Virus record (IMG/VR): IMGVR_UViG_3300031565_000002
DNA length: 64,000 bases
Strand: one strand, 5' to 3'
DNA from: an uncultured virus (IMG/VR IMGVR_UViG_3300031565_000002)
Lineage: Duplodnaviria > Heunggongvirae > Uroviricota > Caudoviricetes
Within the stretch, counting starts at the first letter, position 1. The number at the start of each line of letters is the position of its first letter. The position numbers and the translations under genes were made by a program. This document shows, piece after piece, positions 2,543 through 61,246 of this stretch. The notes under the pieces were generated by a model. The model saw only the letters and a program-made list of their open reading frames with translations, did no database searches and was not told where the DNA came from.

Positions 2543-2715
2543 AATAATTTTTAAAAGAGACTCCATCAAGAGTTTCGCTTGAAATGTAGCCCGTGGACAT
2601 AGCCACGGTACGCAGCCGCACGTGAACCTACATCGGACTATATTGATCTGCAGACCTCAAGTCACCAGAGCCATGATAAGTACTATTAAAATATACGTAT
2701 CATCGACACGTATAG

Positions 2716-2738
2716 AAAAACGGGGCCGAAGCCCCGTG
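2716..2738 (-). terminator. intrinsic terminator
   Basis: ACGGGGC-TTCG-GCCCCGT followed by T run. Confidence 0.7.
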
Positions 2739-2827
2739 TTATTTCGATTTCAAACATGTGCTTGTTCATTCTTCTTCAAACCATCAATGTCAAAGAGCGT
2801 TTGCATAAAACATCTCATAATTTATAT

Positions 2828-3020
2828 AAAAAGTAGGCATCCGTTTTGAAAATGCAATGTTTTACCAATTTGACCATCTCCCCATAATTAGAGATACTAT
2901 TATATATCCCTAATGGAGGGGAGACGAGGAATCGAACCTCGAATGGGCTTGCGCCCACTTCATTTACGGTGAAGTGTCTTTACCATGTATGCATCAAAGG
3001 TCGAAGACGCTCTACTTTTT
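2828..3020 (-). ncRNA. scaffold repeat copy 1 carrying circularly permuted tRNA(GTA)
   Basis: tRNA 3' part 2984-2914 ending CCA precedes 30-nt hairpin linker and 5' part 2883-2860; flanked by conserved complementary arms. Confidence 0.8.
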
Positions 3021-3049: not shown

Positions 3050-3191
3050 AGGTGGTCATCCATTTTGAAAATGCAAGTTTTTTGTATACTAATTGGGAAT
3101 TGAACCCAAGACAGATCGATTCATAGTCGATTGCTCTACCAACTGAGCTATAAGCATTATGTATGCATTAAAGGTCGAAGACGCTCCACCT
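3050..3191 (-). ncRNA. scaffold repeat copy 2 carrying non-permuted tRNA-like (ATG anticodon, no CCA)
   Basis: Same arms; insert 3157-3085 has D, anticodon and T arms and a weak acceptor stem. Confidence 0.75.
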
Positions 3192-3901: not shown

Positions 3902-4028
3902 ATAAATTTAATAAGGTATCTACACGTCCAGTCTAGCTGGCTTCCTGCTCCCTACGCACCCATACAATCAACTTGCATGTATGGCCACCCTCGATACCTT
4001 TAATCATTTTTTATTCCTTTGTTAACAT

Positions 4029-4062
4029 AAAAAAAGCCCTACTTCTTTCGAGGCAGGGCTTT
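4029..4062 (-). terminator. attenuator terminator 1
   Basis: AAAGCCCTGCCTC-GAAA-GAAGTAGGGCTTTTTTT; 5' arm also complementary to GGGCAGGG in the leader. Confidence 0.85.
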
Positions 4063-4092
4063 CAGGTCTTATTTATGTGTAGTATTCTCTAC

Positions 4093-4218
4093 TTATCCAC
4101 TTTGACCTTTCACCCTGCCCATCACGAGACTAAAATCTGAGCGCAATGATGTCCATAACATATCCGAATAATGGATATGCGTCAGACTACATATTGCTAG
4201 GGTTTTGAAAGGATTCAT
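4093..4218 (-). CDS. leader peptide 1 MNPFKTLAICSLTHIHYSDMLWTSLRSDFSLVMGRVKGQSG
   Basis: Hand translation; GGAG upstream; overlaps antiterminator; not in ORF track. Confidence 0.7.
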   Translation of the reverse strand: MNPFKTLAICSLTHIHYSDMLWTSLRSDFSLVMGRVKGQSG

Positions 4219-4264
4219 TTGAATTTAATACTCCGGCTAAAATTATTTTTATTAAAAGAGCTTG

Positions 4265-4384
4265 ATTCTATACGTTTTATCAATGCAAGATGAGGTGCTA
4301 GTTTGCACCCCGATATACTGAATCATTTTGCTGTGACACAAATTGTTTTATATATGTATGCATCAAAGGTCGAGTACAGAATTT
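4265..4384 (-). ncRNA. scaffold repeat copy 4 with non-tRNA hairpin payload
   Basis: TCGACCTTTGATGCATACATA ... TTGCATTGATAAAACG arms, outer stem ATTCT/AGAAT. Confidence 0.6.
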
Positions 4385-4443
4385 CGCCCTTGTATATTTA
4401 CACTTTATTATTCTCCAAAAAAATATCGGAGAAATTTAAAAAA

Positions 4444-4621
4444 AGGAAAAACTATCCGTTTTATAAGAGCAAGTTTTTGCTGAACTATGCCCCCGTATTG
4501 AGAGTACCTTACCGAATGATACCCCTAATGGCGGGGGCATGAGGATTCTCACCTCAGACTTCTTGTACCGAAAACAAGTGTTCTGTATGTATGCCCCAAA
4601 GGTCGAGGACAGCTTTTTCCT
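4444..4621 (-). ncRNA. scaffold repeat copy 5 carrying circularly permuted tRNA(TCG)
   Basis: 3' part 4585-4529 ending GCCA, hairpin linker, 5' part GGGGGCATAGTTCAGC 4494-4479. Confidence 0.75.
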
Positions 4622-4661
4622 ATATTTTCAATGAGCACAATAGATTTCTCTATCTGATACT

Positions 4662-4690
4662 AATATAACCCTAAATTTAAAAAATGTCAA
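4662..4690 (-). promoter_or_regulatory. sigma70-type promoter
   Basis: TTGACA-17 nt-TATATT. Confidence 0.8.
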
Positions 4691-10414: not shown

Positions 10415-10488
10415 TGGGCGATACTGGAATTGAACCAGTGACCTCTTGCATGTCAAGCAAGCACTCTAACCATCTGAGCTAATCACCC
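10415..10488 (-). tRNA. tRNA-Val(GAC)
   Basis: Cloverleaf, loop TTGACAT. Confidence 0.92.
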
Positions 10489-10492
10489 TTTA

Positions 10493-10738
10493 TTAAAAAT
10501 TATCCATTATTTTCTCGATCTCATCTTGCTGATCCCAAACGAAATTAAGATCATCGAGATTCATCCCCTTTGCTTTCCCCATTTTTTCCTCTTCACCTTC
10601 CTTCTGATAATACTCTCTCTTTTCCAACTGAGGAGAACGTTTATTCCAGCTTACTATCTGCAGACGTAATTTATTCCCCCTCATTTCTGTTTCATTTAAT
10701 ACTTTAAGCACATCACATGTTATCTCTTTCTTTGGCAT
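10493..10738 (-). CDS. PC4/YdbC-like ssDNA-binding protein
   Basis: L.IVSWN.R.PQLEKR..Y ... GKAKG pattern. Confidence 0.6.
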   Translation of the reverse strand: MPKKEITCDVLKVLNETEMRGNKLRLQIVSWNKRSPQLEKREYYQKEGEEEKMGKAKGMNLDDLNFVWDQQDEIEKIMDNF

Positions 10739-11726
10739 AAAAAACCTCGCTTGTTAGAGAAAACAGTTCAGCCATACTGTCAGTCGAAACATCTTCCATC
10801 CCTATCTTTTTCATCTCCACATAAATTTTACCGGCAATATCAAACACAAAATAACGATTATTGCCACCATCGTCATCTTTGATATGGATAGAATACTTTT
10901 CAAAATCAGATTCAAGTTTCTTCTCAAACTCATCTTCTGTAATCTGGCCAGTATCCTTTAACTGTAATAATTCTAAAAAATTATTTTTTTTTAAGAGGTT
11001 CGATATAACGGTAAGATAACACTTTTCTTTTTGTCTAGGTAAAAATGTATTTTTCATCATTCTTTTTTTAAATTATCCCATTCCTGTCGGATATTTTCAA
11101 GCCTATCCAATATCCCCTGATCAGACCCACACATAATACCGCTAATCTTATCCATAAGGCTAACTGCTGTTTTTGCAGCAATTAATTTATTTCTACCGGC
11201 AAACGATGTAGATTCCTTTGACATTTCATGTAGTCTATTTATTATCCTATCAACTTTCTCATAACTATCATCACTGCCATATATAATACCAATTATATAT
11301 TTCATGCAAACGTCTGACAATAAATCAGCAATAAATCTTGCATTTTCATCGTCAAACTTTTCAACACTATGTTTGCCAGTGATATAATCAGGAGAAAGTT
11401 TCTCGACAGCCTCCTGAACAAGACATAAAAAATCTTCCGAAAAATCTTCATCGACTTCAGCATTTATTAATATTTTCATTTCAATACACCTTTAGAAAAA
11501 TTCTAATCTATTATTAAAGTGTTCAACCTTTAAATGCTTGACCATTTCCCTTTCGTCTGGTGATAAACCCATAATAACCCTACCAGGCAAGTGCCTTTCC
11601 TGAATAGGATCACCATTACGTAGAGCAATCTCCACATTTTTGCCATGAGGACAACCAACCATATGCCCCAGAAACCACCCTTTACACGCTAACTGTGCTG
11701 CAAATCCATGTAAATCTCGTCTCATA

Positions 11727-12761
11727 CTAACAGCTACTCCTACCTCCACCACAGGAACTACCTCCACTAAATTGCTCCGCAGTCCCTCTCCTTGGTCTCC
11801 TTATTTCTGCTTCTATTCTGTCACTCTCCATTCTTGCTATCTGTGCGCGAGTTAATTCTTCCGACAATGGAGAAGTCTGTTGATCAACTCTTTGTTCATC
11901 TGGATGGGGTTTCTTTCGTGGCTTCTCTTTCCCCATCATACGTATTGATAATATAACATCATCTTCATCATTATGAAGTTCAACGGTCTGTTCAGCCTCC
12001 CAATCAGAAGTAAGAATACCGTTCGGATGCATTATCAACTCATAAATACCATTTAAGCCCTTAGACGGTTCAAGTGAAGATGATTTCCAATTAACCGTCA
12101 CACCATTAATTATCTGGGTTTTAGACCTACATACATCGCACTCAGTAAAATATATAGCATTATACTTAATAAACATTTTTTCGAGAGCACTTGGCGCTTT
12201 TGTCGATCTAACACTATGCCTTTTTCTGAAACTAACCCCACTAGCTCCAACCTCCTTGACATAATCAATATACCTCAAAACATCTGCCTTACTTGAAATA
12301 TTATCCGTTAAAACGGCGTGTAATGTAACATCTATACCAACCTGATTCATCTCATCGCAAATATTCTTCAAATCTCTTGTTGTTGGAATGCCCCTTGCAT
12401 TAAAAATAGAACTATTAACATCATCTTCCCAATGATGACGACTAATATTTACATGATCAACCAGCCCTTTAACCATATCCGGCTCAAGGGCTACGCCATT
12501 GGTCGTAAAAACAACCTTCTCAAATCTCTTCCTTAATATTTTTAATACACTTTTTATTCCGGCACATAAGGTGGGTTCACCACCAGTAACACTAACTTGA
12601 TAAAACTGATCGGGGAGTAAATCTGCAACTTCTTTTAATCTTTTATTAAACTTAGTTATTGATAATGAATCACCTTCTACCCAAAAACAAAAATCACAAT
12701 GAGCATTACAACCACCAGGAACAACTACGGAAAGATTCGGATCTTGTACAACGATATCCAT
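11727..12761 (-). CDS. radical SAM protein
   Basis: CNAHCDFC, TGGEP, TTNG; start moved to ATG downstream of the tRNA. Confidence 0.88.
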   Translation of the reverse strand: MDIVVQDPNLSVVVPGGCNAHCDFCFWVEGDSLSITKFNKRLKEVADLLPDQFYQVSVTGGEPTLCAGIKSVLKILRKRFEKVVFTTNGVALEPDMVKGLVDHVNISRHHWEDDVNSSIFNARGIPTTRDLKNICDEMNQVGIDVTLHAVLTDNISSKADVLRYIDYVKEVGASGVSFRKRHSVRSTKAPSALEKMFIKYNAIYFTECDVCRSKTQIINGVTVNWKSSSLEPSKGLNGIYELIMHPNGILTSDWEAEQTVELHNDEDDVILSIRMMGKEKPRKKPHPDEQRVDQQTSPLSEELTRAQIARMESDRIEAEIRRPRRGTAEQFSGGSSCGGGRSSC

Positions 12762-12781
12762 GAGATCCCTTTCGATAAAAA

Positions 12782-12858
<77 letters not shown>

Positions 12859-12906
12859 TTACTTTTTCCTACAATATAACAAAAATTGTTACATCAGTCA
12901 AAATAA

Positions 12907-12982
12907 TGGTACACCATCAGGGAATCGAACCCCGGACCCACTGATTAAGAGTCAGTTGCTCTACCAACTGAGCTAATGGTGC
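12907..12982 (-). tRNA. tRNA-Lys(CTT)
   Basis: Cloverleaf, loop CTCTTAA, CCA. Confidence 0.92.
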
Positions 12983-13169
12983 ATTTATTCATCTATCCCA
13001 TTAACAGCATTTCTTGCAACCCTTTTATTCTGCTTTCTCTCTTTCTTATGGGTAAGATATTTAGTATATTTTCCAAGACGTTCTCCCTGAGAATGCAACC
13101 TACTCTTCCAATACTCCTTACCCATCTTCCCTGCTTGTTCTGCATTTTCTCCGTGCATAATACCTCAAT

Positions 13170-14018
13170 TTAATCAAGGAATAGTACATTTTTTGCTGCT
13201 CTTGATTTATCTTCAGTATTCAAAGAAACTCTATGCCATACTTCACCAAGATTAATGGTCTTGTGGTCTACATGTGTAATTTTACCTTTAGTCATAACAT
13301 TAGCATCTGCTCGCATGGTAGTCCAGTTCCAATCTCTAGCTCTTGGATTTTTATTTAATATCTTTTTGTATTCACCATCACTCACGCCATTACTGTGCTG
13401 TGGGCAAACCCACACTGAAGTCCCTCCTGTACGAATTAAAAATTCAGCAGTATGAGGATTTCCACCACCTCTTTGCATAGGTTCTTTTTTATGAATTACA
13501 GCATGTATTGGGAGAATAAAATTAGGCATTGGAGTAAAAAAGAATTCTCCCTGACGATGCATTTTTCCGCCCTTTACTCTTTTGTGTCTTTTATGAAGAT
13601 TCTTTGTCTTTACTCTTCCACTCTCAGCCTGTAAAATATCAACCGGTTTTAATGCCTGTTTAGCTCCAATAACAGTACTGACCCCTGCTACTTCAGGAAT
13701 AGCACAACTAAAAAAATGTCTTTCATCAAATCCACAAAGAAATTTCTTTTTATCCCCACCATCTTCTTTAGCCATAAGGAGAATATGACGATCTTTCTTC
13801 TGAACGTCTAAAACCTGCAAATCTATTATATCGCTATTCGATACAATATCAAAGAACTCTCCTTCTTTATCTCTCCGAATATCAATAGATATATCTCCAT
13901 CAACTGGACGATCAGCAAGTTTTATTCTCGCTCCTATACAACTAAATTTCTTTTCAATTGTTGCTACTTTCATAATAATTCCCTCTTTTAAATATGAGGT
14001 GTACGGTAACCCGCACAC
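13170..14018 (-). CDS. hypothetical protein
   Basis: Long ORF; probable start at MKVATIE after GAGGG. Confidence 0.7.
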   Translation of the reverse strand: MCGLPYTSYLKEGIIMKVATIEKKFSCIGARIKLADRPVDGDISIDIRRDKEGEFFDIVSNSDIIDLQVLDVQKKDRHILLMAKEDGGDKKKFLCGFDERHFFSCAIPEVAGVSTVIGAKQALKPVDILQAESGRVKTKNLHKRHKRVKGGKMHRQGEFFFTPMPNFILPIHAVIHKKEPMQRGGGNPHTAEFLIRTGGTSVWVCPQHSNGVSDGEYKKILNKNPRARDWNWTTMRADANVMTKGKITHVDHKTINLGEVWHRVSLNTEDKSRAAKNVLFLD

Positions 14019-14064
14019 CTCATTCCCTTTACATTATACGCATCTATCAAAAATGCGACAATTT

Positions 14065-14277
14065 TTAAAGCGTTACAACGTCCTCTGCCTGCAATCCTTT
14101 CTGGCCTTGCGTAACAGTAAATTCTACTTGCTGCCCTTCCTCAAGAGTAGCATAACCATCCGAACGAATAGCCTTGTAATGGACAAAAACATCATTTCCT
14201 TGTTCCCGCTCAATAAAACCATATCCTTTGGTCGCATTGAACCATTTGACGGAACCTGTCTCACGATCACCAGACAT
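14065..14277 (-). CDS. csp: cold-shock protein
   Basis: [24 protein letters not shown] motifs. Confidence 0.95.
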
Positions 14278-15422
14278 ATACAGATCCTTCCTTTAGATTA
14301 AAAAAACATTACTTACAACGGGAATAAACAAAATTCCCACTTTCTACTTCCTTTTCATTTCCCTATAAAGTTTTACCCAATATGGATCATCAAAATATCT
14401 TTCATGAGGATACGTTGTCGAATTACTGTGAGGAATATCACCAAACCAACCTTTTCCATCCTTATTAAAACTCCATACATCTGAAATCTCCCTCATGACG
14501 GGAAATATTTCTTCATGAGGATATTTCTTAACTAAATTCTTTATTCTATGACGAAGGGCTCTATTGGCAAGCCTCTTGTCATCCTTCTCACTACGTCCAC
14601 CATGACCAATAATAGTGGTTTTCCTGTAAGATTTACCCATTTGACAATCTCCTGTTAGATTATCACATTGGGCACCTCCCTTCAATAATTAATATATTGG
14701 TCATATTCATTTCCTATCAAGCACATGGGGACTTCGCTTTCACCCCTTCTATATCACTTACATAAATAAAATTATCTTCACCCCATTTTTTTATTAATTT
14801 CTTCGTCGCAATCTGTCTCTCAAATCTTCCGTGCCATTGTCCACCTTTACTCGACTTCGAACCATCGTTGAATTCTGAGGGCATACACTGTGAACAGAGA
14901 GCCTTTTTATCACGATCCTTATCCTTATAAAAACCCTGCCCCCTTGTCCAATAATGACCACAAGCAGTATTCTCTACAACTTTACATTCATCACATACAA
15001 ATAAGGGCATTTACTTCCTTTCATCCCAATAACTTTTAGGCACATCATTTAAATTAATCTTATCAACCGACAAATCATTCATATTAACTCTCTCAATAAT
15101 CACACCATCGAGCCAGGGAGCAATTAATTTATACTGCTTCTGCTTGTCATTCTTAAAAATAACCTTGCAATACTCAGTTTTTGTAACTCCATATTTCTGA
15201 TCCCACGTTACTTGATAAACGAGAATTGAGTCCTCGATAAGAATACTTTTGTACTCTTCCCATTCGCCCTTCTCTATTTGTATTGTATCTGCTATCTTAA
15301 TATTAGAAAGATTAATTCCTCGATTAGCATTCCATGTAACCAAAATAATTATAGCCAATATACAGGTAATAACAATAAGTGTTATCGTGGTGCTTTTCTT
15401 CATCGTATCCCCTTTCAAAAAA

Positions 15423-15498
15423 TGGCTGGGATGGCAGGGGTCAAACCTGCGACCTCCGCATCCAGAGTGCGGCGTTCTGTCAACTGAACTACATCCCA
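15423..15498 (-). tRNA. tRNA-Gln(CTG)
   Basis: U1-A72, loop CTCTGGA, G73, CCA. Confidence 0.88.
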
Positions 15499-15775
15499 GT
15501 AATTATCTTCCGCTTTTCATGGATATAACAATACTGCCTGCTACAATATTATAAAGATAATCGAAAGAAAAGTCAATTTCTCTATTAATCTTTTTTAATT
15601 TATTTATAGCCAAAGAAATATCGTATTCTCCTAAAATTAAAGGCACTTTTCTTTTTTCTACACCATTAACCACCACAGCCTGATAGCCCCAATCACTAAT
15701 TTTAGTAAATAAAACTTTCTTATTTCCGAAAACATCTGTCCTTACTACCATAATTAAGCCCGGAATAAATATTTA

Positions 15776-15852
15776 TGGTCGGGATGGGCGGATTTGAACC
15801 GCCGGCCCCTTCGCCCCGAACGAAGTGCGCTACCAGACTGTGCTACATCCCG
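15776..15852 (-). tRNA. tRNA-Pro(CGG)
   Basis: Loop TTCGGGG, CCA. Confidence 0.92.
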
Positions 15853-16677
15853 TTAAATACTATATATCTCATTCCAACAGTTTAAAGCTAACCTTGATGC
15901 TGTCTCAACTATAGGTTTCATATCGCATGCATAAAGACCAGCGCAAGAAAAAGATCCTATTTCAAGAAGATAATATTCATTATCTGCACCTTGACATACA
16001 TCTATAACATATATCGGATCAGGGGAATATTTATTAGCCACAATTTTAGCCAATTCAAACGCCTTATTATGCCATCCCCCCGTACATTCAGACTTTCCAT
16101 TCTCCCGATACATACTACCGGCAACAACTTCACCTTCAGCAACAACAAATCTCCACTCAGCTTTTATATTTTTAGGAGAAGATATTACTATAAGACTATC
16201 CTTATCTGCAAACTCTTCTACCCATTCCCAGTCTTTATCAAAATGCTCAACAGTAAAAATTTTACCATCAAACGTTTTAAATCCAGAGCTAGGTCTAATA
16301 AAAATACAGCCATCTTTCCCTAACCGTTCATACCATCTCTCTTTTGTTCTCTTAAATTCAGAAGCTGGCAGCATTATATAATCATCATTAAAAAGGTATT
16401 CTCCTAAATGCGCATAATAAGTACTACACTCATACTTCTGTAAATAAAGCCAAGGCCCAGGTATCCAGCCTTTCTTACTACGTATTAACTCTCCTGCTAA
16501 TTGCAACGATGCCTGAACTATCACGCAATCATTATCGGAATACTTATCTCTATTCCCAGACTCTATCGGATAATAAGTAATAGGTTCACACTCATACCCC
16601 TGTCGCTTAATTTCTTTAATTAAACGGCCATAATTATTACCCTCGTCAAAATCTTCTACAAGCCATTTAGGTTTCAT
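15853..16677 (-). CDS. ATP-grasp protein (R2K/DUF4343-like)
   Basis: FIRP..K.F.G, EWRFVV, YVIDV, LLEI..FSCAGLY. Confidence 0.75.
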
Positions 16678-17111
16678 ATCATTTCCGGCTCAAATATTCC
16701 GTTTTCATCTTCACCTTGATAAATTATTTCCCATTCTCCTGTGCCAATATTAACCATCTTATCCTTCAACTTTTTGGCAAGTTCTCTCCCCCATTTATTA
16801 TACTTCTCTGCCTTACCTTCCTTGAGAGTAGAGTAGTCTTTCTTAAAAGAATCATCATAATACTTTATCCATTCATGAAATTCAGCAGCCAATTCTTTCC
16901 CATCAAAGATATAATCATAATCGACCATTACTCCAGTATGTCCATCCCATATTCCACTACTAGAAAAATCAGCCATTACTTTTAACTTATTATCTTTATA
17001 TCCTTTTACCTCTGCATGATAACATTTAGTCTTATCTTTATTATTATTAGCAGAACAAAGAATCCCTATACAACTACTATTGTAAAGGCAACAATGTATC
17101 ATTTTATATTC

Positions 17112-17891
17112 CTACTTTCTATGGAGGGGGAGAGATGGGATTCGAACCCGCAATATACTCCAATATCCCCTACCTGGAGTCAATATACCAAAATAATTAC
17201 AACGCTTTTTAATAGCAGAACCAGAAACATTATATAATTCTGCTATCTTAACAACTGGTATCTCCCAAACCATTTTTGCTAATTCATCTCTATTAATATT
17301 AAATTTCATCTTTGATAATGGCAAATTACCACTTCCGCCAATACATGAAAGACATAAACCAGTTTTACCTTCACCATATAATACACAACCACAAGAAGTA
17401 CAATTATAAACCCTTATCTTAGATCTACCGCAAAATGTTTTTGTCTGACTATTACAATTAGGGCATAAAAGTCTTAAATTTTCTAATCTATTATCAGTAT
17501 TATCTCCATTTACATGATCGAGGACTAATACAAGTAGAAAATTATTCCATAAAGGTTTCATACTACATAAATAACAAATATTATTTAATAATCCACCCCT
17601 TATTAATCGCTTCTTCAAACGACCTCTATTCTGATATGTAGAATTCTTTACAAGAATATCTTTTAAAGGAATAGTTCGCGTTAAATGTAAATTTTTTCTT
17701 TGATTAATTATCCCATTCTTTATATGAGTATCATCTATACCTAACTCAACAATTCTTTTTTTTAAAGTTTTACAATTACCACCATGATTTTTCAAATCAA
17801 AAAAAGCAAGTATTTCACCATAACTATTAAACCCTTTAACTAATTCAATAAATTTATTTGATTCTAAACTCCATATAATACTCTTATTCAT
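17112..17891 (-). CDS. HNH homing endonuclease
   Basis: LDHVNGDNTDNRLENLRLLCPNCNSQT. Confidence 0.9.
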   Translation of the reverse strand: MNKSIIWSLESNKFIELVKGFNSYGEILAFFDLKNHGGNCKTLKKRIVELGIDDTHIKNGIINQRKNLHLTRTIPLKDILVKNSTYQNRGRLKKRLIRGGLLNNICYLCSMKPLWNNFLLVLVLDHVNGDNTDNRLENLRLLCPNCNSQTKTFCGRSKIRVYNCTSCGCVLYGEGKTGLCLSCIGGSGNLPLSKMKFNINRDELAKMVWEIPVVKIAELYNVSGSAIKKRCNYFGILTPGRGYWSILRVRIPSLPLHRK

Positions 17892-17910
17892 ATAAAATTC
17901 CTATTAAAAA

Positions 17911-17984
17911 CAAGGGAAGAAGGATTCGAACCTTCAACCTTGAGACCCAAAATCTCATGCTCTATCCATTTGAGCTATTCCCCT
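17911..17984 (-). tRNA. tRNA-Gln(TTG)
   Basis: Stem TGAGA/TCTCA, loop TTTTGGG, G73. Confidence 0.85.
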
Positions 17985-19125
17985 ATAAAACATAATTATG
18001 GTCTTCAGGAGAAGGCCTTGGAATATAATTGATATGTCTAAATGCGTCATAATGACTAGCCATAACTAACGACCCATGACCTTTCAAATTAAGAGCCACA
18101 ATCACGACATGTCTATGTGGCTCTTGTTTAATTATTTCATAAAACTCTTCAACAGCCCCACATGGAACTACACTTCCAGTAAAATCAGCATCTTTTATAT
18201 AAGTATGCGAATGAATCATAAAATTAATATTATAATAATAACGATACAACAATAACTGTATCGGAGTATCAACTGACGGTTTATTATCTCCTGTATATTT
18301 CACATTATATCCAAACGAAGTATCTCCTTTAAGGTCTACCGGAACAAACCCGTCAATTCCTATTTCTCTCTTGTCTATATTTCTCCTTGAAACAAAGATT
18401 TGTTTTTCCCCTCGAAACGATGGGAATCCATTCTCACAACGAAAAGAAACATTACCTAATAACCTTGTAGTATCTTTCGCATGTATACAGTCATGAAAAA
18501 CTTCTGCATACTTTCTAGTCAAATCAAAGAACTCCGGTGAAATAACCGGCTTAACTACTTCTGCTTTATACTGACAACTTCTAATCCTAGTGAATCTTCT
18601 CAATTCATTAACCCGACACATCAAGGCTGTTGCAATATTATCTATATTTGTAGATACACAAAAACAATTTCCTAATGGATCATTAACAGATGCCCTTATT
18701 CTACGTAAATCATTATTAGAATTGGCAAACTCCACAAACAAATTACTTTTAGTTTTAAGTGCACGGGAAACCAACTGCATAAATCCATACCTTGAATCAA
18801 GATTATTCTTTGATGTAACAAGGATACGAGTCGGAACTTCAGCCTTTAATCTATTTACCAATTTTTCTTTATCATTAGAAACATCCGGAAACCAAAATAT
18901 TACATCTGCCAATCTGCCAACTAAAGATTCCAATTCACTAAATGTCCCACCATTAAATAAAATTCCTTCGTGATTAATCGAATACATTACTTCAAAAAGT
19001 TTTCTAGCATAACCTGATGGTTTAGGGTCATCTCCCCATTTTCCGGCAACTACAGTATAACGAAACATTCTACCTCCTGGTTTAAGATACTTACTATAAT
19101 ATAACAAATATCTTAAAAAAGTCAT
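17983..19125 (-). CDS. class II aldolase/adducin-domain protein
   Basis: PSVDTP, HSH, NLKGHG; real start probably MFRY. Confidence 0.65.
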   Translation of the reverse strand: MTFLRYLLYYSKYLKPGGRMFRYTVVAGKWGDDPKPSGYARKLFEVMYSINHEGILFNGGTFSELESLVGRLADVIFWFPDVSNDKEKLVNRLKAEVPTRILVTSKNNLDSRYGFMQLVSRALKTKSNLFVEFANSNNDLRRIRASVNDPLGNCFCVSTNIDNIATALMCRVNELRRFTRIRSCQYKAEVVKPVISPEFFDLTRKYAEVFHDCIHAKDTTRLLGNVSFRCENGFPSFRGEKQIFVSRRNIDKREIGIDGFVPVDLKGDTSFGYNVKYTGDNKPSVDTPIQLLLYRYYYNINFMIHSHTYIKDADFTGSVVPCGAVEEFYEIIKQEPHRHVVIVALNLKGHGSLVMASHYDAFRHINYIPRPSPEDHNYVL

Positions 19126-19211
19126 GGGACCGGTTGGATTCGAACCAACGCGGGGCTTATTAACCCTTCGCCTTAAAAGGGCGATGCTCTCGGCCGCTGA
19201 GCGACGATCCC
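19125..19211 (-). tRNA. tRNA-Lys(TTT) with long variable arm
   Basis: Loop CTTTTAA; extra GGGTT-AATA-AGCCC arm. Confidence 0.8.
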
Positions 19212-19218
19212 TAAAAAT

Positions 19219-19295
19219 TGGTCGGGGTGGCCGGACTTGAACCGACGACCTCCTGGTCCCAAACCAGGCGTTCCACCATGCTGAACTACACCCCG
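19219..19295 (-). tRNA. tRNA-Pro(TGG)
   Basis: Loop TTTGGGA, CCA. Confidence 0.92.
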
Positions 19296-19303
19296 ATAAT
19301 TTA

Positions 19304-19381
19304 TGGTAGGCAAGGTAGGATTCGAACCTACGACCCCCTGCTTGTAAGGCAGGTGCTCTATACCAACTGAGCTACTCACCC
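19304..19381 (-). tRNA. tRNA-Val(TAC)
   Basis: Loop CTTACAA, CCA. Confidence 0.92.
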
Positions 19382-19390
19382 ATAATTTAG

Positions 19391-19463
19391 TACCCCCGGT
19401 CCGGTTTGAACGGACGACCCACGCCTTAAAAGGGCGTTGCTCTACCAACTGAGCTACGGAGGC
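19391..19463 (-). tRNA. tRNA-Lys(TTT)
   Basis: Loop CTTTTAA. Confidence 0.9.
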
Positions 19464-19469
19464 ATATAG

Positions 19470-19740
19470 AATCAGTGGGGGGATTCGAACCCATCACCAA
19501 TAATCTACTTCTCTGTCTTACTAACTTAATCTACTAAATATGAATCAACTATAAAGCCTGTCCAGACCTTCCTCTGGCTCACGTTTTTTTGAGCTTGCGC
19601 CCATGCCATGTTGCTTTACAATATAAAACATACCTTTTGAATAACTTTTCCAACAGTCTTTCGATTATCAACGATTTCTCCGCACCAGGAACCAAATGGC
19701 ATGTGCGCTGTCCTGTGCTCTACCGCTGAGCTACACTGAT
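19470..19740 (-). ncRNA. tRNA-like RNA with ~190-nt insertion
   Basis: Acceptor ATCAGTG/CACTGAT, D arm and TTCGAAT T loop flank a long insert. Confidence 0.65.
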
Positions 19741-19749
19741 TCTAATAAC

Positions 19750-20487
19750 TTATTGAAATTTAACTACGCTGTCAAAGAGCATTGTATAATTATCTATTTT
19801 TCTATCATCATGAAAATGTCCACAATAATATTCATCAAACTCAGCCTTCTCACAAACCCTTTGCAAAAATATTGCTGTTGGGTCATCTATCCTACCAGTC
19901 GGACTATCATAAACCTTATCATACTCACCAATAATATTAGACGGCAATGTATGAGCAACTATAATATCGACCTTATTTCCATGTTTCTTTAAATTCCTCC
20001 ACGCATTTCTTTTATCATTTTCATTCGGTAACTCTCCAGGCCACCAATCTTTTCCTTCTATTCTCTTAACCTCTTTAAATTTATTCCCCCTTAAAACTTT
20101 ACTTACCATATCGGTAGTCTTTGCCCCACCAAATACAAATATCTTTTTACCGTTTATTGTATAAACTTCACCCCGTTTAAGATGAAATATATTATCTCTA
20201 ACCCTTCCTACTTTACCCCCAAATTTCTCTCCAACAAATAACTTTGATAACATATCATGATTGTCATGATTACCATCTACAAAAAGTGTCGTCCAAGGTT
20301 TATCGGAAAGCCATTTAAGCCACCATATTTCGCTTTTATCGGGCGGATCGCTCCACAACAACCCAAAGTCACCTGCTATGATTACTACGTCATTTATAGT
20401 CAATTCTCGACCTTCTGGAAACCTTTTAACTCCCAGCTTATAAATATCAGAATAGCCGTGTGTATCTCCAGTTATATAGATCGACAA
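19750..20487 (-). CDS. calcineurin-like metallophosphoesterase
   Basis: GDTHG, AGDFG, GNHD, CGHFH. Confidence 0.9.
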   Translation of the reverse strand: MSIYITGDTHGYSDIYKLGVKRFPEGRELTINDVVIIAGDFGLLWSDPPDKSEIWWLKWLSDKPWTTLFVDGNHDNHDMLSKLFVGEKFGGKVGRVRDNIFHLKRGEVYTINGKKIFVFGGAKTTDMVSKVLRGNKFKEVKRIEGKDWWPGELPNENDKRNAWRNLKKHGNKVDIIVAHTLPSNIIGEYDKVYDSPTGRIDDPTAIFLQRVCEKAEFDEYYCGHFHDDRKIDNYTMLFDSVVKFQ

Positions 20488-20507: not shown

Positions 20508-20540
20508 AAAAAAAGCCTTCTCTTTTTCAAGAGGAGGCTT
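20508..20540 (-). terminator. attenuator terminator 2
   Basis: AAGCCTCCTCTT-GAAA-AAGAGAAGGCTTTTTTT. Confidence 0.85.
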
Positions 20541-20596
20541 CTTATCTTTTTGTACTTTTATCTATTTTAGGTCAGTTTTAAGATAAAGAATCCCCC

Positions 20597-20665
20597 TCAC
20601 AGTCCAGGTTTCTGTACTGGTTGCGGCTTTACGACAAGCACGGGTTTTCTAATTATAACTGACAT
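20597..20665 (-). CDS. leader peptide 2 MSVIIRKPVLVVKPQPVQKPGL
   Basis: GGAG RBS; stop codon overlaps antiterminator; not in ORF track. Confidence 0.8.
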   Translation of the reverse strand: MSVIIRKPVLVVKPQPVQKPGL

Positions 20666-20706
20666 CACTTCTCCATTTTAATAAATAACTATTCCTAATC
20701 TATCTT

Positions 20707-20735
20707 AATATAACACGAAATACTAAAAAAGTCAA
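20707..20735 (-). promoter_or_regulatory. sigma70-type promoter
   Basis: TTGACT-17 nt-TATATT. Confidence 0.8.
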
Positions 20736-22061
20736 CAACTTTATGAAATTATTTTTATCCGTTATTTAATTACTTTATTTTCATCTTTAAAAATATCGTA
20801 TATTTCTCTTGGTCTCACATAAATCTTCCTTAAAGACCCTTCCTTACCACATTTTTTACAATCACCATATACAGCAAAAGGGCTTTTATTGTATTCAGTA
20901 CGCTTTTTCAACTTATTTGCACAAGACATACACACACCATGATAATGCTTCTTTACCGTAGATCTTCTTCCTACATCAACACACTTCGTCCCTGCTGGCT
21001 TACCGCATATCTGACAAATATCATCCCAATTACCACTATCACTTTCATCGTGCTCTTTTAATTTATTAAGTTTTACGGCACATACTGAGCATATCATCTT
21101 ACGCATTATTATCTCTCACAGCATCTAATCTCTCTTTATTCTTATCTTTTTCGTTACATACATCACTATCTATATTTTCCTTCTTTATCTTTGGCTTTCT
21201 GGGACACCAACTAGGGACATTGCATTCTTTTTTGGTGTGATGCGGCCTACAACCACACGTTATGACCTTATCGTTTTTAGCCTTACATACTACCTTAACA
21301 TCATCATCACAAAACCAATCGTAAGGATCTGGATCAGACAAAACTTTATGCTCTGGACATTCAGTACAATTACTAACTTCAAAATTTATTATCATTTCAG
21401 CCCCTTTATCCTAAATCCCCTCACGGGCCTATCCTCATCCTTCCGATATAATCTCATAGCCTTCGCAACATCAACAAAATCTTTATCTAACATTTCAATT
21501 TCTTTTCTTAATTTCTCGATACTTTTATTGTACTGATCCATGTCAGCACTCCGCTGATTTTGAAAATTATTACGCTCATTATGAATAAACTCTTTAAATT
21601 TGCCTATCGCTTCATCTCTTTTAACTATTTCATCAAGGAATAAATCATCCGCTGCTTCTTTATCTTTCAAAACCCTAACTATTCTTTTGCTATGCTCACT
21701 AATCATAGTATTTGCTGCAGATAAATCTATCTGCAATCTTTCCTTATCTAACGATAATTCTCTACAATCATTCTTTAACTCATTAATTCGATCATCGAGT
21801 AATACTATAGTATGCCCTTTAGAAGTTACAAGAACATCTCTTTGGTCAACTTCAGAAACTAATATCGAAAGTTTACTCTCATATTCAGACTCCCTAAAAT
21901 GAAGCATACCATCAACATTAACTTCCCAAATAAATACTTTATTCAATTTAAATGAATAATATCTCTCATCATTACCTATGGTGGTTATTTTGCACCAATT
22001 TACAAAAAACCAATGATAAGCACCATCAGGAGAACTTTTAAAAAGAAACGGAAATACCTTC

Positions 22062-29005: not shown

Positions 29006-29080
29006 TGGTACGCCCGAGAGGACTTGAACCCCCGACGCGCAGATCTAGAATCTACCGTTCTGCCACTGAACTACAGGCGC
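29006..29080 (-). tRNA. amber suppressor tRNA (CTA anticodon)
   Basis: Stem GTAGA/TCTGC closing loop TTCTAGA; complete cloverleaf with CCA. Confidence 0.85.
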
Positions 29081-37176: not shown

Positions 37177-37381
37177 GAAAAGGTGGTTATATGGAAATCC
37201 CATACAACCACCGGTTTATATATAAAGGGATAATTTCCTTCTAATTATGTGCTTATTCAATCTTAACCAGAAATGTCAAAGAACGTTAATAATTTTGTAA
37301 AATTCATACTTCACCACCTTTTATAATGTTATACTATATATAATATAACAAAGTAGGTATATGAAGTAAAATTTTATCATT

Positions 37382-37410
37382 AAAAAAGCCCCATCTTTTG
37401 GATAGGGCTC
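37382..37410 (-). terminator. attenuator terminator 3
   Basis: AGCCCTATC-CAAAA-GATGGGGCTTTTTT; antiterminator GGGCTCA near 37430-37436. Confidence 0.82.
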
Positions 37411-37440
37411 ATTAATCGAATACAACATTTGAGCCCAATT

Positions 37441-37506
37441 TTAGGGTATACCTTCTCCCTCTCTATTATCATTCCGTTCAAACCTATTATTTATTAAGTG
37501 CTTCAT
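37441..37506 (-). CDS. leader peptide 3 MKHLINNRFERNDNREGEGIP
   Basis: AAGGAAG upstream; hand translation; not in ORF track. Confidence 0.78.
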   Translation of the reverse strand: MKHLINNRFERNDNREGEGIP

Positions 37507-37611
37507 ACTGTACTTCCTTTAATTTGGAGCCGGAGCCAGGAGTCTCACCTGAACGACTGTATGTGCCCATACAAGGCTTCGCATCTTGTACAGAACTCCG
37601 ACATAATTTAA

Positions 37612-40356: not shown

Positions 40357-40392
40357 AAAAAAAACTCTGTCGGGTTTTGCCTGACAGAGTTT
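40357..40392 (-). terminator. attenuator terminator 4
   Basis: AAACTCTGTCAGG-CAAAA-CCCGACAGAGTTTTTTTT; antiterminator GCCTGACAAGAG 40420-40409. Confidence 0.85.
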
Positions 40393-40424
40393 AAAATTCA
40401 TGTTTAGTCTCTTGTCAGGCCGCA

Positions 40425-40505
40425 CTATCCTCCGCCTTCTGCATTAATAGCAGCTTCATCTATAATATTAGTGCTTCTTATTATCCTGACAGTTGTTGCT
40501 AACAT
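40425..40505 (-). CDS. leader peptide 4 MLATTVRIIRSTNIIDEAAINAEGGG
   Basis: GAGGA RBS; hand translation; not in ORF track. Confidence 0.78.
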   Translation of the reverse strand: MLATTVRIIRSTNIIDEAAINAEGGG

Positions 40506-40611
40506 AAAAAGTTAATCCTCGTTTAAATCCTAGTTTAATACCTTACTTAACTATTTTACTATTATGGTTTAAAATATCGGTATTAAACCAAAAAAGTTTA
40601 TTGTTGTTCCT

Positions 40612-40640
40612 AATATACCCCTAAAACCCAAAAAAGTCAA
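40612..40640 (-). promoter_or_regulatory. sigma70-type promoter
   Basis: TTGACT-17 nt-TATATT. Confidence 0.78.
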
Positions 40641-40941
40641 CAACTTTTTAAAATTATTTTTACGGTTCATCAATAAGAGCTTTATCTTTATCGTTAATAC
40701 TATTTATAAATTTATCATTTTCAACATGATAAATTATAAATTTTACCTTACCATACCTTCTATTGGCCTCAGAAAGAGCAATCGCATGATCATCAAATAC
40801 CCCCTCTATTCTTGCCTTGCGTATCAGTAAGTACTTATTAAGATACTTCTCCAAAAATTCTTCTTCATGTTCCCGTATCCACTTTAGGTTCCTATTCGCA
40901 TCACGTGCCATAACTATCCTCCTTTTGATAAATGGAAGTTA

Positions 40942-41868: not shown

Positions 41869-41975
41869 CTAATCCACCAATCTAGAAATTAAATAAAGTA
41901 TAATATACTACTTTATTTTTTGTAAAAAAAATATCGATGAATTTGGGGATTTTGACCACAAATAAAGGGGTTTTA

Positions 41976-59645: not shown

Positions 59646-60056
59646 CTAAAATTTGACGTATTTAGCATACCCCAATTCTACTAATTGATCGTTCAAATTA
59701 ATTTCAGGCTCTTCAACATTGTCATCATCCTTAAAATAAAAAATCTCAACTATAAACCTGCCATACTTACCGGTTCTATCCTTCTTAGTCTGAATAGAAA
59801 TGGTTTTGCCAGACAATATATCTGCAACAAACTGCTTAGCTTCCAATCCCTTTTCTTTGTCCTCTGGGGTTGTCCCTTTTACAAGACGAGTCTCATATGC
59901 ATCGATGCGTGCCAATCTCAATCTTTGAGTTATCTTAACTCCAAAACCTAAATCAACATCAACGTCAATAGTGTCTCCATCGACAACCCTCTTTACTACA
60001 GCATTATAATCATACATATACCATCTGCTACTTTCTAAGTGCTCATTACTGAACAT
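59646..60056 (-). CDS. thermonuclease (SNase-like)
   Basis: VVDGDTID, RLARIDAYE, GKYGR, N..LV..GYA; real start probably MYDY. Confidence 0.9.
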   Translation of the reverse strand: MFSNEHLESSRWYMYDYNAVVKRVVDGDTIDVDVDLGFGVKITQRLRLARIDAYETRLVKGTTPEDKEKGLEAKQFVADILSGKTISIQTKKDRTGKYGRFIVEIFYFKDDDNVEEPEINLNDQLVELGYAKYVKF

Positions 60057-61246
60057 TCTGAAATTCCTACTTCTTCCAAGGCAGTTTCGTTTGTCCCAAT
60101 TGAGGACGGATAAACCAGAGCTTCCTTGTCCATAGGCGTTAATTCGGGATTAACCATCCCTATTTTATTAAGACCATAGTTCTTTAAATTTATTGAAGCA
60201 TTCAGGTCACGGTCTATAACCTGGCCACAATTTTCACAAATAAATTCCCTTTCGGAAAGTAATAGCTCTGCCTTTACATAACCACAACCCGAACAAGTCT
60301 TAGAAGAAGGAAACCACCTATCCGCAACGATTAGTGTATTCCCATAAAGAACTGATTTATATTCAAGTTGTCTACGAAATTCACCAAAACCTAAATCAGA
60401 AATACTTAAAGCTAATTTATGATTCTTCAGCATTCCTGAGACATTCAGGTCCTCAATCACTATAATCTGATAATTATTACAAAGATAAGTAGTAAGTTTA
60501 TCGAGGATGTCTTTCCTTAGACAGGCAATTTCATAATGAACTTTAGCTACTTTTCGATTAGCCTTATGCCTGTTAGAAGATCCCTTAATTTTTCTCGATG
60601 CCCATCTCTGTAATAATTTAAGCTTACCTAAACGCCTGCGTAAAGGATTGACAGACACTATCACTTTCCTGTCACTTAAAGTAGCCAGTGTTTTAATTCC
60701 AAGATCAACACCTACAACTGCTTGGTTATCACAAATAGTAGAATTAATCTCAGTTTGAACACTAATCACTATGAACCAATAATCTGCTTTTCTTCTGACT
60801 ACAGCAGACATTATTTTCCCGGCAAATCTTAAGGGTTCTGCCCCTTTGACCCATCCGAGTTTAGGTATCCTGAATTTATTTTCTTCTACTGAAAATTTAT
60901 CATTTGAGATGTAAAAAGAGTCTCTTCTACCCTTTTTCTTAAATACAGGATATTTATTTTGATATTTAAAGAATCTTCCAAAAGCTGCCTGAAGATTAGT
61001 AAAAGGTTGTTGGTTAGCGTCTTTATTTGTCTCAGACATCCAAGGAAATTTAATTTTCTTTTCTTTATTAAATTGTTTTTTAATTTCTAAGATATTAGGT
61101 TTTAAACCTTCTTCTTTTAACCTTTGATACTCAGAGAGGCCATAGTTATAAGCAACTCGGGCACAGCCACACGCTTTCCTGAAGAAGGTTTCGTGCCCTT
61201 TAGTAGGGTAGAGACGAATAGTATGCACTAAATTTAAAATGCTCAT
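60035..61246 (-). mobile_element. tnpB: TnpB RNA-guided nuclease, IS200/IS605-family element without tnpA
   Basis: IRLYP HTH, GVDLGIK, IEDL, SSKTCSGCG, DRDLNASIN. Confidence 0.92.

Follow-up and report, generated by a model that had tools for sequence, protein, structure and literature searches.

Leader-peptide attenuators of enterobacterial amino-acid operons include the trp, his, leu and pheA leaders and the multivalent leaders of ilvGMEDA (Ile, Val and Leu codons) and thr (Thr and Ile codons). In these operons the promoter is followed by a Shine-Dalgarno (SD) sequence and a short open reading frame (ORF) of regulatory codons, by the mutually exclusive helices 1:2, 2:3 and 3:4 and by a terminator ahead of the first gene, and the position of the stop codon lets a ribosome that terminates there block the antiterminator. 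Here we describe an element of the same layout in a 64,000-nucleotide (nt) stretch of DNA, referred to below as the window, from an uncultured Caudoviricetes virus (IMG/VR record IMGVR_UViG_3300031565_000002). The element occupies positions 20508-20735 on the minus strand, and its leader is dominated by codons for Lys, Pro, Val and Gln (K/P/V/Q). We consider it likely that this K/P/V/Q unit attenuates transcription in the trp/ilv manner, through ribosomes translating a leader peptide, and that its regulatory codons are multivalent. This assignment rests on features computed from the DNA: the anatomy of the unit, helices that compete with one another, the way these are placed relative to the ORF, the conservation and covariation they show, and the agreement between codons and tRNAs.

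The K/P/V/Q unit differs from the enterobacterial leaders in that it would regulate phage tRNA genes and a phosphoesterase rather than biosynthetic enzymes, uses four amino acids and samples every synonymous codon, and precedes genes whose products themselves read the test codons. It also has no sequence or profile membership in curated families: among the Rfam amino-acid operon leaders the best match was Thr_leader (RF00506), at 20.7 bits versus a gathering score of 55 (E = 0.46).

The closest precedents outside biosynthesis each share part of this design. The pheST attenuator, with its pheM leader, controls Escherichia coli phenylalanyl-tRNA synthetase. As proposed for the K/P/V/Q unit, it attenuates a component of the decoding apparatus and not amino-acid synthesis; it is, however, cellular, responds to one amino acid and targets a synthetase, whereas the K/P/V/Q unit would control the tRNAs themselves, in a phage. 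T-box riboswitches likewise use antitermination to report the state of a specific tRNA and to control translation-related genes, but they bind the uncharged tRNA directly and have no ORF, while the K/P/V/Q unit has a predicted translated ORF and four amino acids; no T-box was matched in Rfam at the gathering score or at E ≤ 1. The lambda pR'-tR' region, in which Q acts as antiterminator, resembles the unit in placing a strong promoter before an immediate terminator with a long operon beyond, but requires a protein factor and has neither ORF nor alternative helix. In the proline-codon leaders mgtL and mgtP of Salmonella mgtA and mgtCBR (PMC3641672), codon-specific translation speed selects between alternative stem-loops, as proposed here, but the targets there are a Mg2+ transporter and a virulence operon, and the codons are unrelated to the products. 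What distinguishes the K/P/V/Q unit from the ilv and thr leaders is the target, phage tRNA genes, and the sampling of every synonymous codon. A full-text search, with subscription journals outside its scope, returned no published description of leader-peptide control of phage or cellular tRNA genes.

Leader ORF and competing helices

The elements of the K/P/V/Q unit, in the order of transcription, are:

20707..20735, minus strand: sigma-70-type promoter (TTGACT, 17-nt spacer, TG-extended TATATT)
20671..20674, minus strand: Shine-Dalgarno GGAG, 5 nt ahead of the ATG
20597..20665, minus strand: leader ORF, 22 codons plus TGA (ATG at 20665, TGA at 20599-20597), encoding MSVIIRKPVLVVKPQPVQKPGL
20640..20663, minus strand: segment 1, the anti-antiterminator strand (ORF codons 1-9), paired with segment 2 in the full-length minimum free energy (MFE) fold
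20606..20647, minus strand: regulatory codon run, codons 7-20
20600..20619, minus strand: small hairpin within the 3' part of the ORF, from the per-sequence fold
20571..20598, minus strand: segment 2, beginning inside the stop codon, with 20598-20580 as the 5' strand of the antiterminator
20529..20548, minus strand: segment 3, the 3' strand of the antiterminator and also the 5' arm of the terminator
20508..20524, minus strand: segment 4, the 3' arm of the terminator plus its T7 run (20514-20508)

Every element named in a preliminary description of this DNA was confirmed at its coordinates on the minus strand. The promoter, which that description had located just upstream of the leader, agrees with the consensus at 10 of 12 positions. 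An automatic ORF listing begins the leader one codon upstream, at a GTG.

The composition of the leader is highly biased. Of its 21 non-initiator residues, 14 are K/P/V/Q (the preliminary description had counted 14 of 22 in all), against a background of 0.22 in the 14,412 codons of the window's long ORFs (binomial p = 1.2e-5), and it ranks first by K/P/V/Q fraction among the 454 ATG-initiated ORFs of 15-45 codons on both strands of the window. Within codons 7-20 the fraction rises to 13 of 14. As had been claimed, the leader samples every codon for the four amino acids: CCC, CCG, CCA and CCT; GTT, GTG, GTC and GTA (twice); AAA (twice) and AAG; and CAA and CAG. The use of all 12 has a probability of 0.0012 under the codon usage of the window and 0.008 under uniform usage, and it takes in CCC, GTC and GTG, which make up just 8%, 6% and 11% of their respective families.

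The leader RNA can form two competing sets of helices. At full length its MFE is -43.6 kcal/mol, and the structure contains the terminator together with long-range 1:2 pairing between codons 1-9 and the region just past the stop (20663-20653/20581-20571 and 20650-20640/20597-20587). The intrinsic terminator (20543-20508; placed at 20513-20540 in the promoter and terminator listing) consists of a 14-bp stem, 20543-20529/20524-20510, and the T7 run. When the RNA is cut ahead of the terminator 3' arm, the MFE structure switches to a 17-bp 2:3 helix between 20598-20580 and 20548-20531. As isolated hairpins the antiterminator is competitive with the terminator (-18.8 versus -16.8 kcal/mol), and the duplex between the stop-region segment and the terminator 5' arm has an energy of -21.4 kcal/mol that none of 1000 dinucleotide shuffles of the upstream region reached. 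This is the pairing that the preliminary description had proposed, together with the prediction that a ribosome at the stop would permit termination and an earlier stall would not. Folding of the nascent RNA with the ribosome modelled as a masked 28-nt footprint bears the prediction out in silico: all 17 antiterminator pairs are kept with the A site at codon 7, 9, 11, 13, 15, 17 or 19, and none at codon 22. The hairpin in the 3' part of the ORF, of which relatives carry a counterpart (CCAGUAC/GUAUUGG), could conceivably act as a pause hairpin.

A promoter, a short ORF and a terminator would by themselves make up a complete minimal transcription unit, and the locus might in principle be an independent small gene, for a micropeptide or a small RNA, with the downstream genes expressed by leaky read-through or from elsewhere. 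We regard this as extremely improbable. It fits poorly with the phosphoesterase start following about 20 nt past the terminator, with no promoter found between them, with the conserved alternative partner of the terminator 5' arm and with the repetition of the same layout before each tRNA block, both described below.

Conservation of the unit in related lineages

No close relative of the window was found in phage records or IMG/VR: the sole megablast match is a tRNA match to phage G, and a single-protein scan gave no relatives. Searching for leader and terminator as a pattern gave no matches. The 18-mer promoter pattern was present at 25 loci, of which none carried tRNAs and none was related by tblastx. 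The stretch is contained in DNA contigs from four sequencing runs with the leader identical in all, so that these contigs show no population variation; no RNA run was listed among those with the stretch. At E ≤ 1e-10 there are 1238 homologues of the phosphoesterase, of which the nearest share 81%, 73% and 57-62% identity. The DNA of relatives was compared in four contigs whose phosphoesterase is 58-61% identical. Three of these are metagenome contigs (L033, L034 and L035), and the fourth, L193, is a 5.3-kb AT-rich contig binned in an archaeal metagenome-assembled genome (MAG; G003). L033 and L193 are of one sequence type, of which L033 covers the 3' part.

These contigs represent two further lineages, L193/L033 and L034/L035, and both carry an orthologous unit directly upstream of the phosphoesterase, with the same type of promoter, an SD, a leader and a terminator. 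The leader of L193 reads MNMLVKGQKQVQPKPVQKPVLEEKAIV, with 17 of 26 residues K/P/V/Q. That of L034 reads MNMLVVQQPKNKPVQKPILAKKAIV, and the L035 version has V18 and E21, giving the joint sequence MNMLVVQQPKNKPVQKP[I/V]LA[K/E]KAIV with 15 of 24 residues K/P/V/Q. Directly past the phosphoesterase lie tRNAs Lys-ttt, Pro-tgg, Val-tac, Gln-ttg and Gln-ctg in L193 and L033, and Pro-agg, Lys-ctt, Val-tac, Pro-tgg and Gln-ttg in L034.

The alternative helices are conserved as structures rather than as sequences, as seen by comparing per-sequence folds (MAFFT alignments misregister the terminator arms by one column). The terminators of the relatives have energies of -16.7 to -18.2 kcal/mol, the antiterminator forms in the nascent fold of each, and in each of three homologues no shuffle of 1000 reaches the energy of the antiterminator duplex. 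The 2:3 core is preserved with different letters (GAGGGGG/CCUCCUC in the window, GAGAAGG/CCUUCUC in the relatives), as is the 1:2 helix (GUCAGUU/AACUGAC in the window, GUUAGUU/AACUAAU in L193), whose second part joins segment 2 to ORF codons that differ from lineage to lineage. The 1:2 pairing is present in the full-length MFE structures of the window and the three homologues, and segment 2 is, in every lineage, a slightly better complement to segment 3 than segment 4 is. The ORF of the relatives is six codons longer, which places segment 2 inside it, and the window's stop lies at the 5' edge of segment 2. A terminating ribosome is predicted to cover segment 2 in either layout. Among 157 phosphoesterase loci with at least 150 nt of upstream sequence, a terminator precedes the gene only in L034, L035 and the unrelated L189, which confines the K/P/V/Q unit to a close clade.

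The leaders of the three lineages share only a KPVQKP core; the rest has diverged and is still rich in K/P/V/Q. This pattern bears on whether the stalling signal is the supply of cognate tRNA or, as in attenuators of the TnaC, Erm and SecM type, the nascent peptide, or else general translation stress. The conservation of the core as a peptide in all three lineages would suit an arrest peptide, and proline-rich stretches are intrinsically slow to translate. Arrest would not, however, account for the retention of K/P/V/Q composition where the leaders diverge, for the sampling of all synonymous codons, which is relevant to tRNAs and not to a peptide, or for sister leaders with wholly different peptides that fit their own tRNA sets. 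We think a peptide- or stress-based signal unlikely.

Downstream tRNA genes and sister units

The window is AT-rich (36% GC). Its minus strand holds 69 of the 84 ORFs of at least 100 amino acids and all 40 tRNA genes called by ARAGORN, 39 of which Rfam supports at the gathering score; at that score the Rfam scan of the window found no family other than tRNA. Judged by Pfam matches to a ribonucleotide reductase, a DinG-like helicase, dUTPase, dNMP kinase, HNH nucleases, methylases and a TnpB-like protein, the gene content is that of a jumbo phage. The TnpB/IS605 OrfB-like gene lies at 60035-61246 and has OrfB_IS605 and Cas12f1-like TNB domains. The genes downstream of the K/P/V/Q terminator are:

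19750..20487, minus strand: calcineurin-like metallophosphoesterase, first gene past the terminator (TTG start, SD AAGGA; PF00149, 9.2e-12; phrog_1649)
19469..19740, minus strand: tRNA-like element with an insert of ~180 nt, first in the block (perfect 7-bp acceptor stem; weak Ala-agc in ARAGORN intron mode; identity uncertain; no Rfam intron match)
19125..19463, minus strand: proximal tRNA cluster Lys-ttt, Val-tac, Pro-tgg, Lys-ttt (ARAGORN, Rfam)
10415..17985, minus strand: distal tRNAs among protein genes (ARAGORN), comprising the six that follow
17910-17985, minus strand: tRNA Gln-ttg
15776-15852, minus strand: tRNA Pro-cgg
15423-15498, minus strand: tRNA Gln-ctg
12907-12982, minus strand: tRNA Lys-ctt
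12782-12858, minus strand: tRNA Pro-ggg
10415-10488, minus strand: tRNA Val-gac

The ARAGORN calls between 19463 and 10415 agree with the earlier claim that the ten downstream tRNAs are only for Lys, Val, Pro and Gln. Under strict wobble rules, each of the 14 K/P/V/Q codons of the leader can be decoded by some tRNA of this block. No convincing promoter of their own was found for the proximal four. The tRNA-Lys(ttt) at 19125-19211, of 87-89 nt, has a long extra arm that is unusual for Lys and is kept in L193 (3301-3389). Pfam and PHROGs searches of the genes in the block found nothing tRNA-related besides the phosphoesterase. Homologues of the phosphoesterase adjoin tRNA genes in many unrelated phage contigs (L036, L087, L114, L117, L136-L187 and others), which hints at a tRNA-related role; one might speculate that this role is end-healing.

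The K/P/V/Q unit is one of several in the window, and the 18-mer over its promoter -35 region is repeated exactly at 40630-40647, before a sister unit. In addition, other AT-rich contigs of this phage type are binned with L193 in G003, where four units stand behind one promoter pattern (11 matches, 5 of them exact, versus 0 for a reversed control). The sister units are:

40357..40640, minus strand: promoter, leader MLATTVRIIRSTNIIDEAAINAEGGG (40505-40425, TAG stop) and terminator, then tRNAs Ile and Ala x3
37381..37506, minus strand: leader MKHLINNRFERNDNREGEGIP and terminator without a promoter of its own, then tRNAs Asp, Glu, Gly, Glu and Asn x2, and later Arg x4
4029..4690, minus strand: promoter, long structured 5' region, 41-codon leader MNPFKTLAICSLTHIHYSDMLWTSLRSDFSLVMGRVKGQSG (4218-4093) and terminator, then tRNAs Phe, Ser x2, His x2, Tyr, Asp, Leu x2, Met and Cys
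G003 U1: leader MFIFVRRIRIAAIAIRGCK, then tRNAs Ile, Arg-tct, Ala and Arg-cct
G003 U2: leader MLFVIIVNERGNGNDNGNDGEPSRTGLL, then tRNAs Glu, Asp, Asn, Asn, Glu, Gly and Gly
G003 U3: the unit of L193 described above, then tRNAs Lys, Pro, Val, Gln and Gln
G003 U4: leader MRTLILSLLSYTHSCYSSMSWLTLRSYFSAKGEVKAS, then tRNAs Phe, Tyr, Arg-acg, Ser x2, Trp, His, Met, Leu, Thr and Cys

The unit at 37.5k sits inside the operon begun at 40.6k, an arrangement of tandem attenuators in which the 40.6k leader mixes amino acids of both blocks; in the 37.5k leader, 13 of 13 matched residues use codons decoded by tRNAs of its block.

The strongest argument for an attenuator is that the composition of a leader reflects the tRNAs downstream of it. 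A 7x7 comparison of leaders with blocks from the two genomes (three units of the window, four of G003) shows that amino acids of the unit's own block account for 19/25, 14/21 and 22/40 leader residues in the window and for 12/18, 14/27, 17/26 and 28/36 in G003. Of the 6 possible permutations in the window, the true pairing of leaders and blocks scores highest (55 matches versus 30 for the next), as it does among 24 in G003 (71 versus 50). The match extends to details: the window's third leader has Asp and its block tRNA-Asp, whereas G003 U4 has neither, and where a block has a tRNA for Arg, 11 of the 12 Arg codons in its leader belong to the class (AGR or CGN) which that tRNA reads.

A blind scan of the collected loci asked for ORFs of 10-50 codons with SD and ATG that end beside a terminator, with at least two same-strand tRNAs within 4 kb. 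It returned 15 candidates, 12 of them with p < 0.025; lineages L113 and L117, among these 12, are new. The 416-kb contig L113 shows a textbook 1:2:3:4 layout, its leader MLTLRQTQPQQPRQPRSNMLM preceding tRNAs Pro, Gln, Pro, Gln, Arg-tcg and Arg-gcg, and the same genome has a second unit (p = 0.013). In L117, leader MVFNALLSLSLLSSWSNQLR precedes tRNAs Ser, Leu, Trp, Leu and Leu. No significant match between leader and tRNAs was seen in L100 (p = 0.16), in two ORFs of L121 (p = 1) and in L285 (one candidate, p = 0.5).

These comparisons also bear on a mechanism in which the small ORF is irrelevant and a protein factor, either a lambda Q/N-like or a NusG-like processive antiterminator, overcomes a promoter-proximal terminator. 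The lambda pR'-tR' region has the same succession of promoter and terminator, and the common promoter type of the sister units is what would be expected of a timed regulon. Such a factor would leave unexplained, however, the 2:3 helix at the stop codon with its compensatory changes, the SD-preceded ORFs in all units, and the leader-tRNA matching in seven units and in 12 of the 15 scanned cases. Among the Pfam matches of 77 proteins of the window, which is only part of the genome, no Q/N-like antiterminator family was found. We hold this mechanism to be very unlikely.

Several further features were seen in or near the units. An amber-suppressor-type tRNA (anticodon cta) lies at 29006-29080 of the window. 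Leaders ending in TAG with segment 2 right behind occur in the window's 40.5k unit (40425-40427), G003 U1 (L274, ~9664) and L117; if TAG were read through late in infection, these switches would behave differently. The motif CGATATTTTT occurs three times in the window (20789-20798, 4419-4428 and 41927-41936) versus 0.36 expected, with a variant at 40571-40580. It is located near attenuator promoters, also near units in L193, L274, L273 and L034; we take it to resemble the sigma-28/SigD -10 element, and it may mark a second promoter class. On the minus strand, four stretches of 70-170 nt beside tRNAs or leaders look structured (4470-4640, 4260-4400, 37510-37600 and 3925-3990); they have a common CAUACA-containing motif and no Rfam match at the gathering score. 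A tRNA-His with anticodon atg (A34) at 3084-3157 stands beside a normal His-gtg at 2006-2082. Finally, behind the same promoter type in a G003 contig (L279, ~2700-3000) lies a candidate phage transfer-messenger RNA, judged by eye from a GGGG...UUCGAC 5' end and a tag frame ending AA-stop.

The proposed circuit and its implications

Under the attenuator model, transcription would begin at ~20700 and the 22-codon leader would be translated as RNA polymerase proceeds. With fast decoding of codons 7-20, the ribosome would reach the TGA and cover segment 2, so that segments 3 and 4 pair and a transcript of ~190 nt is freed at the terminator and its T7 run. Slow decoding at any K/P/V/Q codon would stall the ribosome upstream, keeping segment 1 from segment 2 and leaving segment 2 uncovered; segment 2 would then pair with segment 3 in the 17-bp antiterminator, and polymerase would enter the phosphoesterase gene and the Lys-Val-Pro-Lys tRNA cluster. 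Read-through may extend to the Gln, Pro, Lys and Val tRNAs farther on. We infer both translation of the leader ORF and, in the host, its coupling to transcription; slow decoding of K/P/V/Q codons as the signal, the folding kinetics and read-through as far as the tRNAs are likewise presumed. Because the product tRNAs decode the test codons, the simplest reading of the circuit is a negative-feedback controller of decoding supply for the four amino acids. A role against host tRNA depletion or cleavage would be an attractive, speculative extension of this reading.

A number of observations weigh against this model. On the RNA side, the stability of the whole-leader fold is unremarkable (z = -1.35, matched by 13 of 200 shuffles). 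The MFE structure of the full transcript keeps the terminator, with no antiterminator pairs, at all 23 ribosome positions, and read-through must therefore rest on co-transcriptional folding kinetics, on which trp attenuation likewise depends. Even without a ribosome the nascent RNA favours 2:3 over 1:2 (-32.7), which makes the untranslated default state uncertain. As to the leader, 7 of its 21 residues are not K/P/V/Q, and the conservation of the KPVQKP core as sequence could point to a peptide-specific role. Downstream, the first regulated gene encodes a protein and not a tRNA, and near-consensus promoters lie on the minus strand before Gln-ctg (15548-15576) and Pro-ggg (12873-12901). Some tRNAs inside the block are thus probably expressed constitutively, and because these two have their own promoters, control of the distal tRNAs by the K/P/V/Q switch is doubtful. 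In the comparisons, the unit is known in just three independent lineages, a small sample. Of two genomes found through their ribonucleotide reductase (G001 and G002), both of which hold tRNA arrays, the distant relative G002 has a Gln-Gln-Pro-Pro-Lys-Val block and no leader. In the tRNA region of phage G, two candidate ORFs gave p = 0.56 and 0.78, with no such leaders, and the match in L183 depends on how the block is defined: a 4-kb reach gives p = 0.0012 and a 3-kb reach 0.077.

The sister units raise a broader possibility, which we put forward tentatively. Giant phages may organize tRNAs into amino-acid-themed operons, each gated by a codon-matched leader, which together would form a homeostat of decoding supply that senses tRNA availability and not amino-acid supply. 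The phage tRNA set would then be turned on when host tRNAs for its codons become scarce, as might follow the decay of host tRNAs or their cleavage by an anticodon-nuclease defence, and the Lys-containing unit with its phosphoesterase could constitute a built-in counter-measure.

To our knowledge, the regulation of phage tRNA genes is largely unknown, and why phages carry tRNAs is still debated. If the attenuator model is true, its compact, codon-specific sensors of translation speed could be used as tools. A leader that tests the codons read by the tRNAs following it would be a direct and modular sensor of decoding capacity, in which the attenuation logic of amino-acid operons is applied to the translation machinery itself. 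The leader would also be a readable marker of the codons that the phage expects to become limiting in its host, and phage tRNAs would be made on demand.

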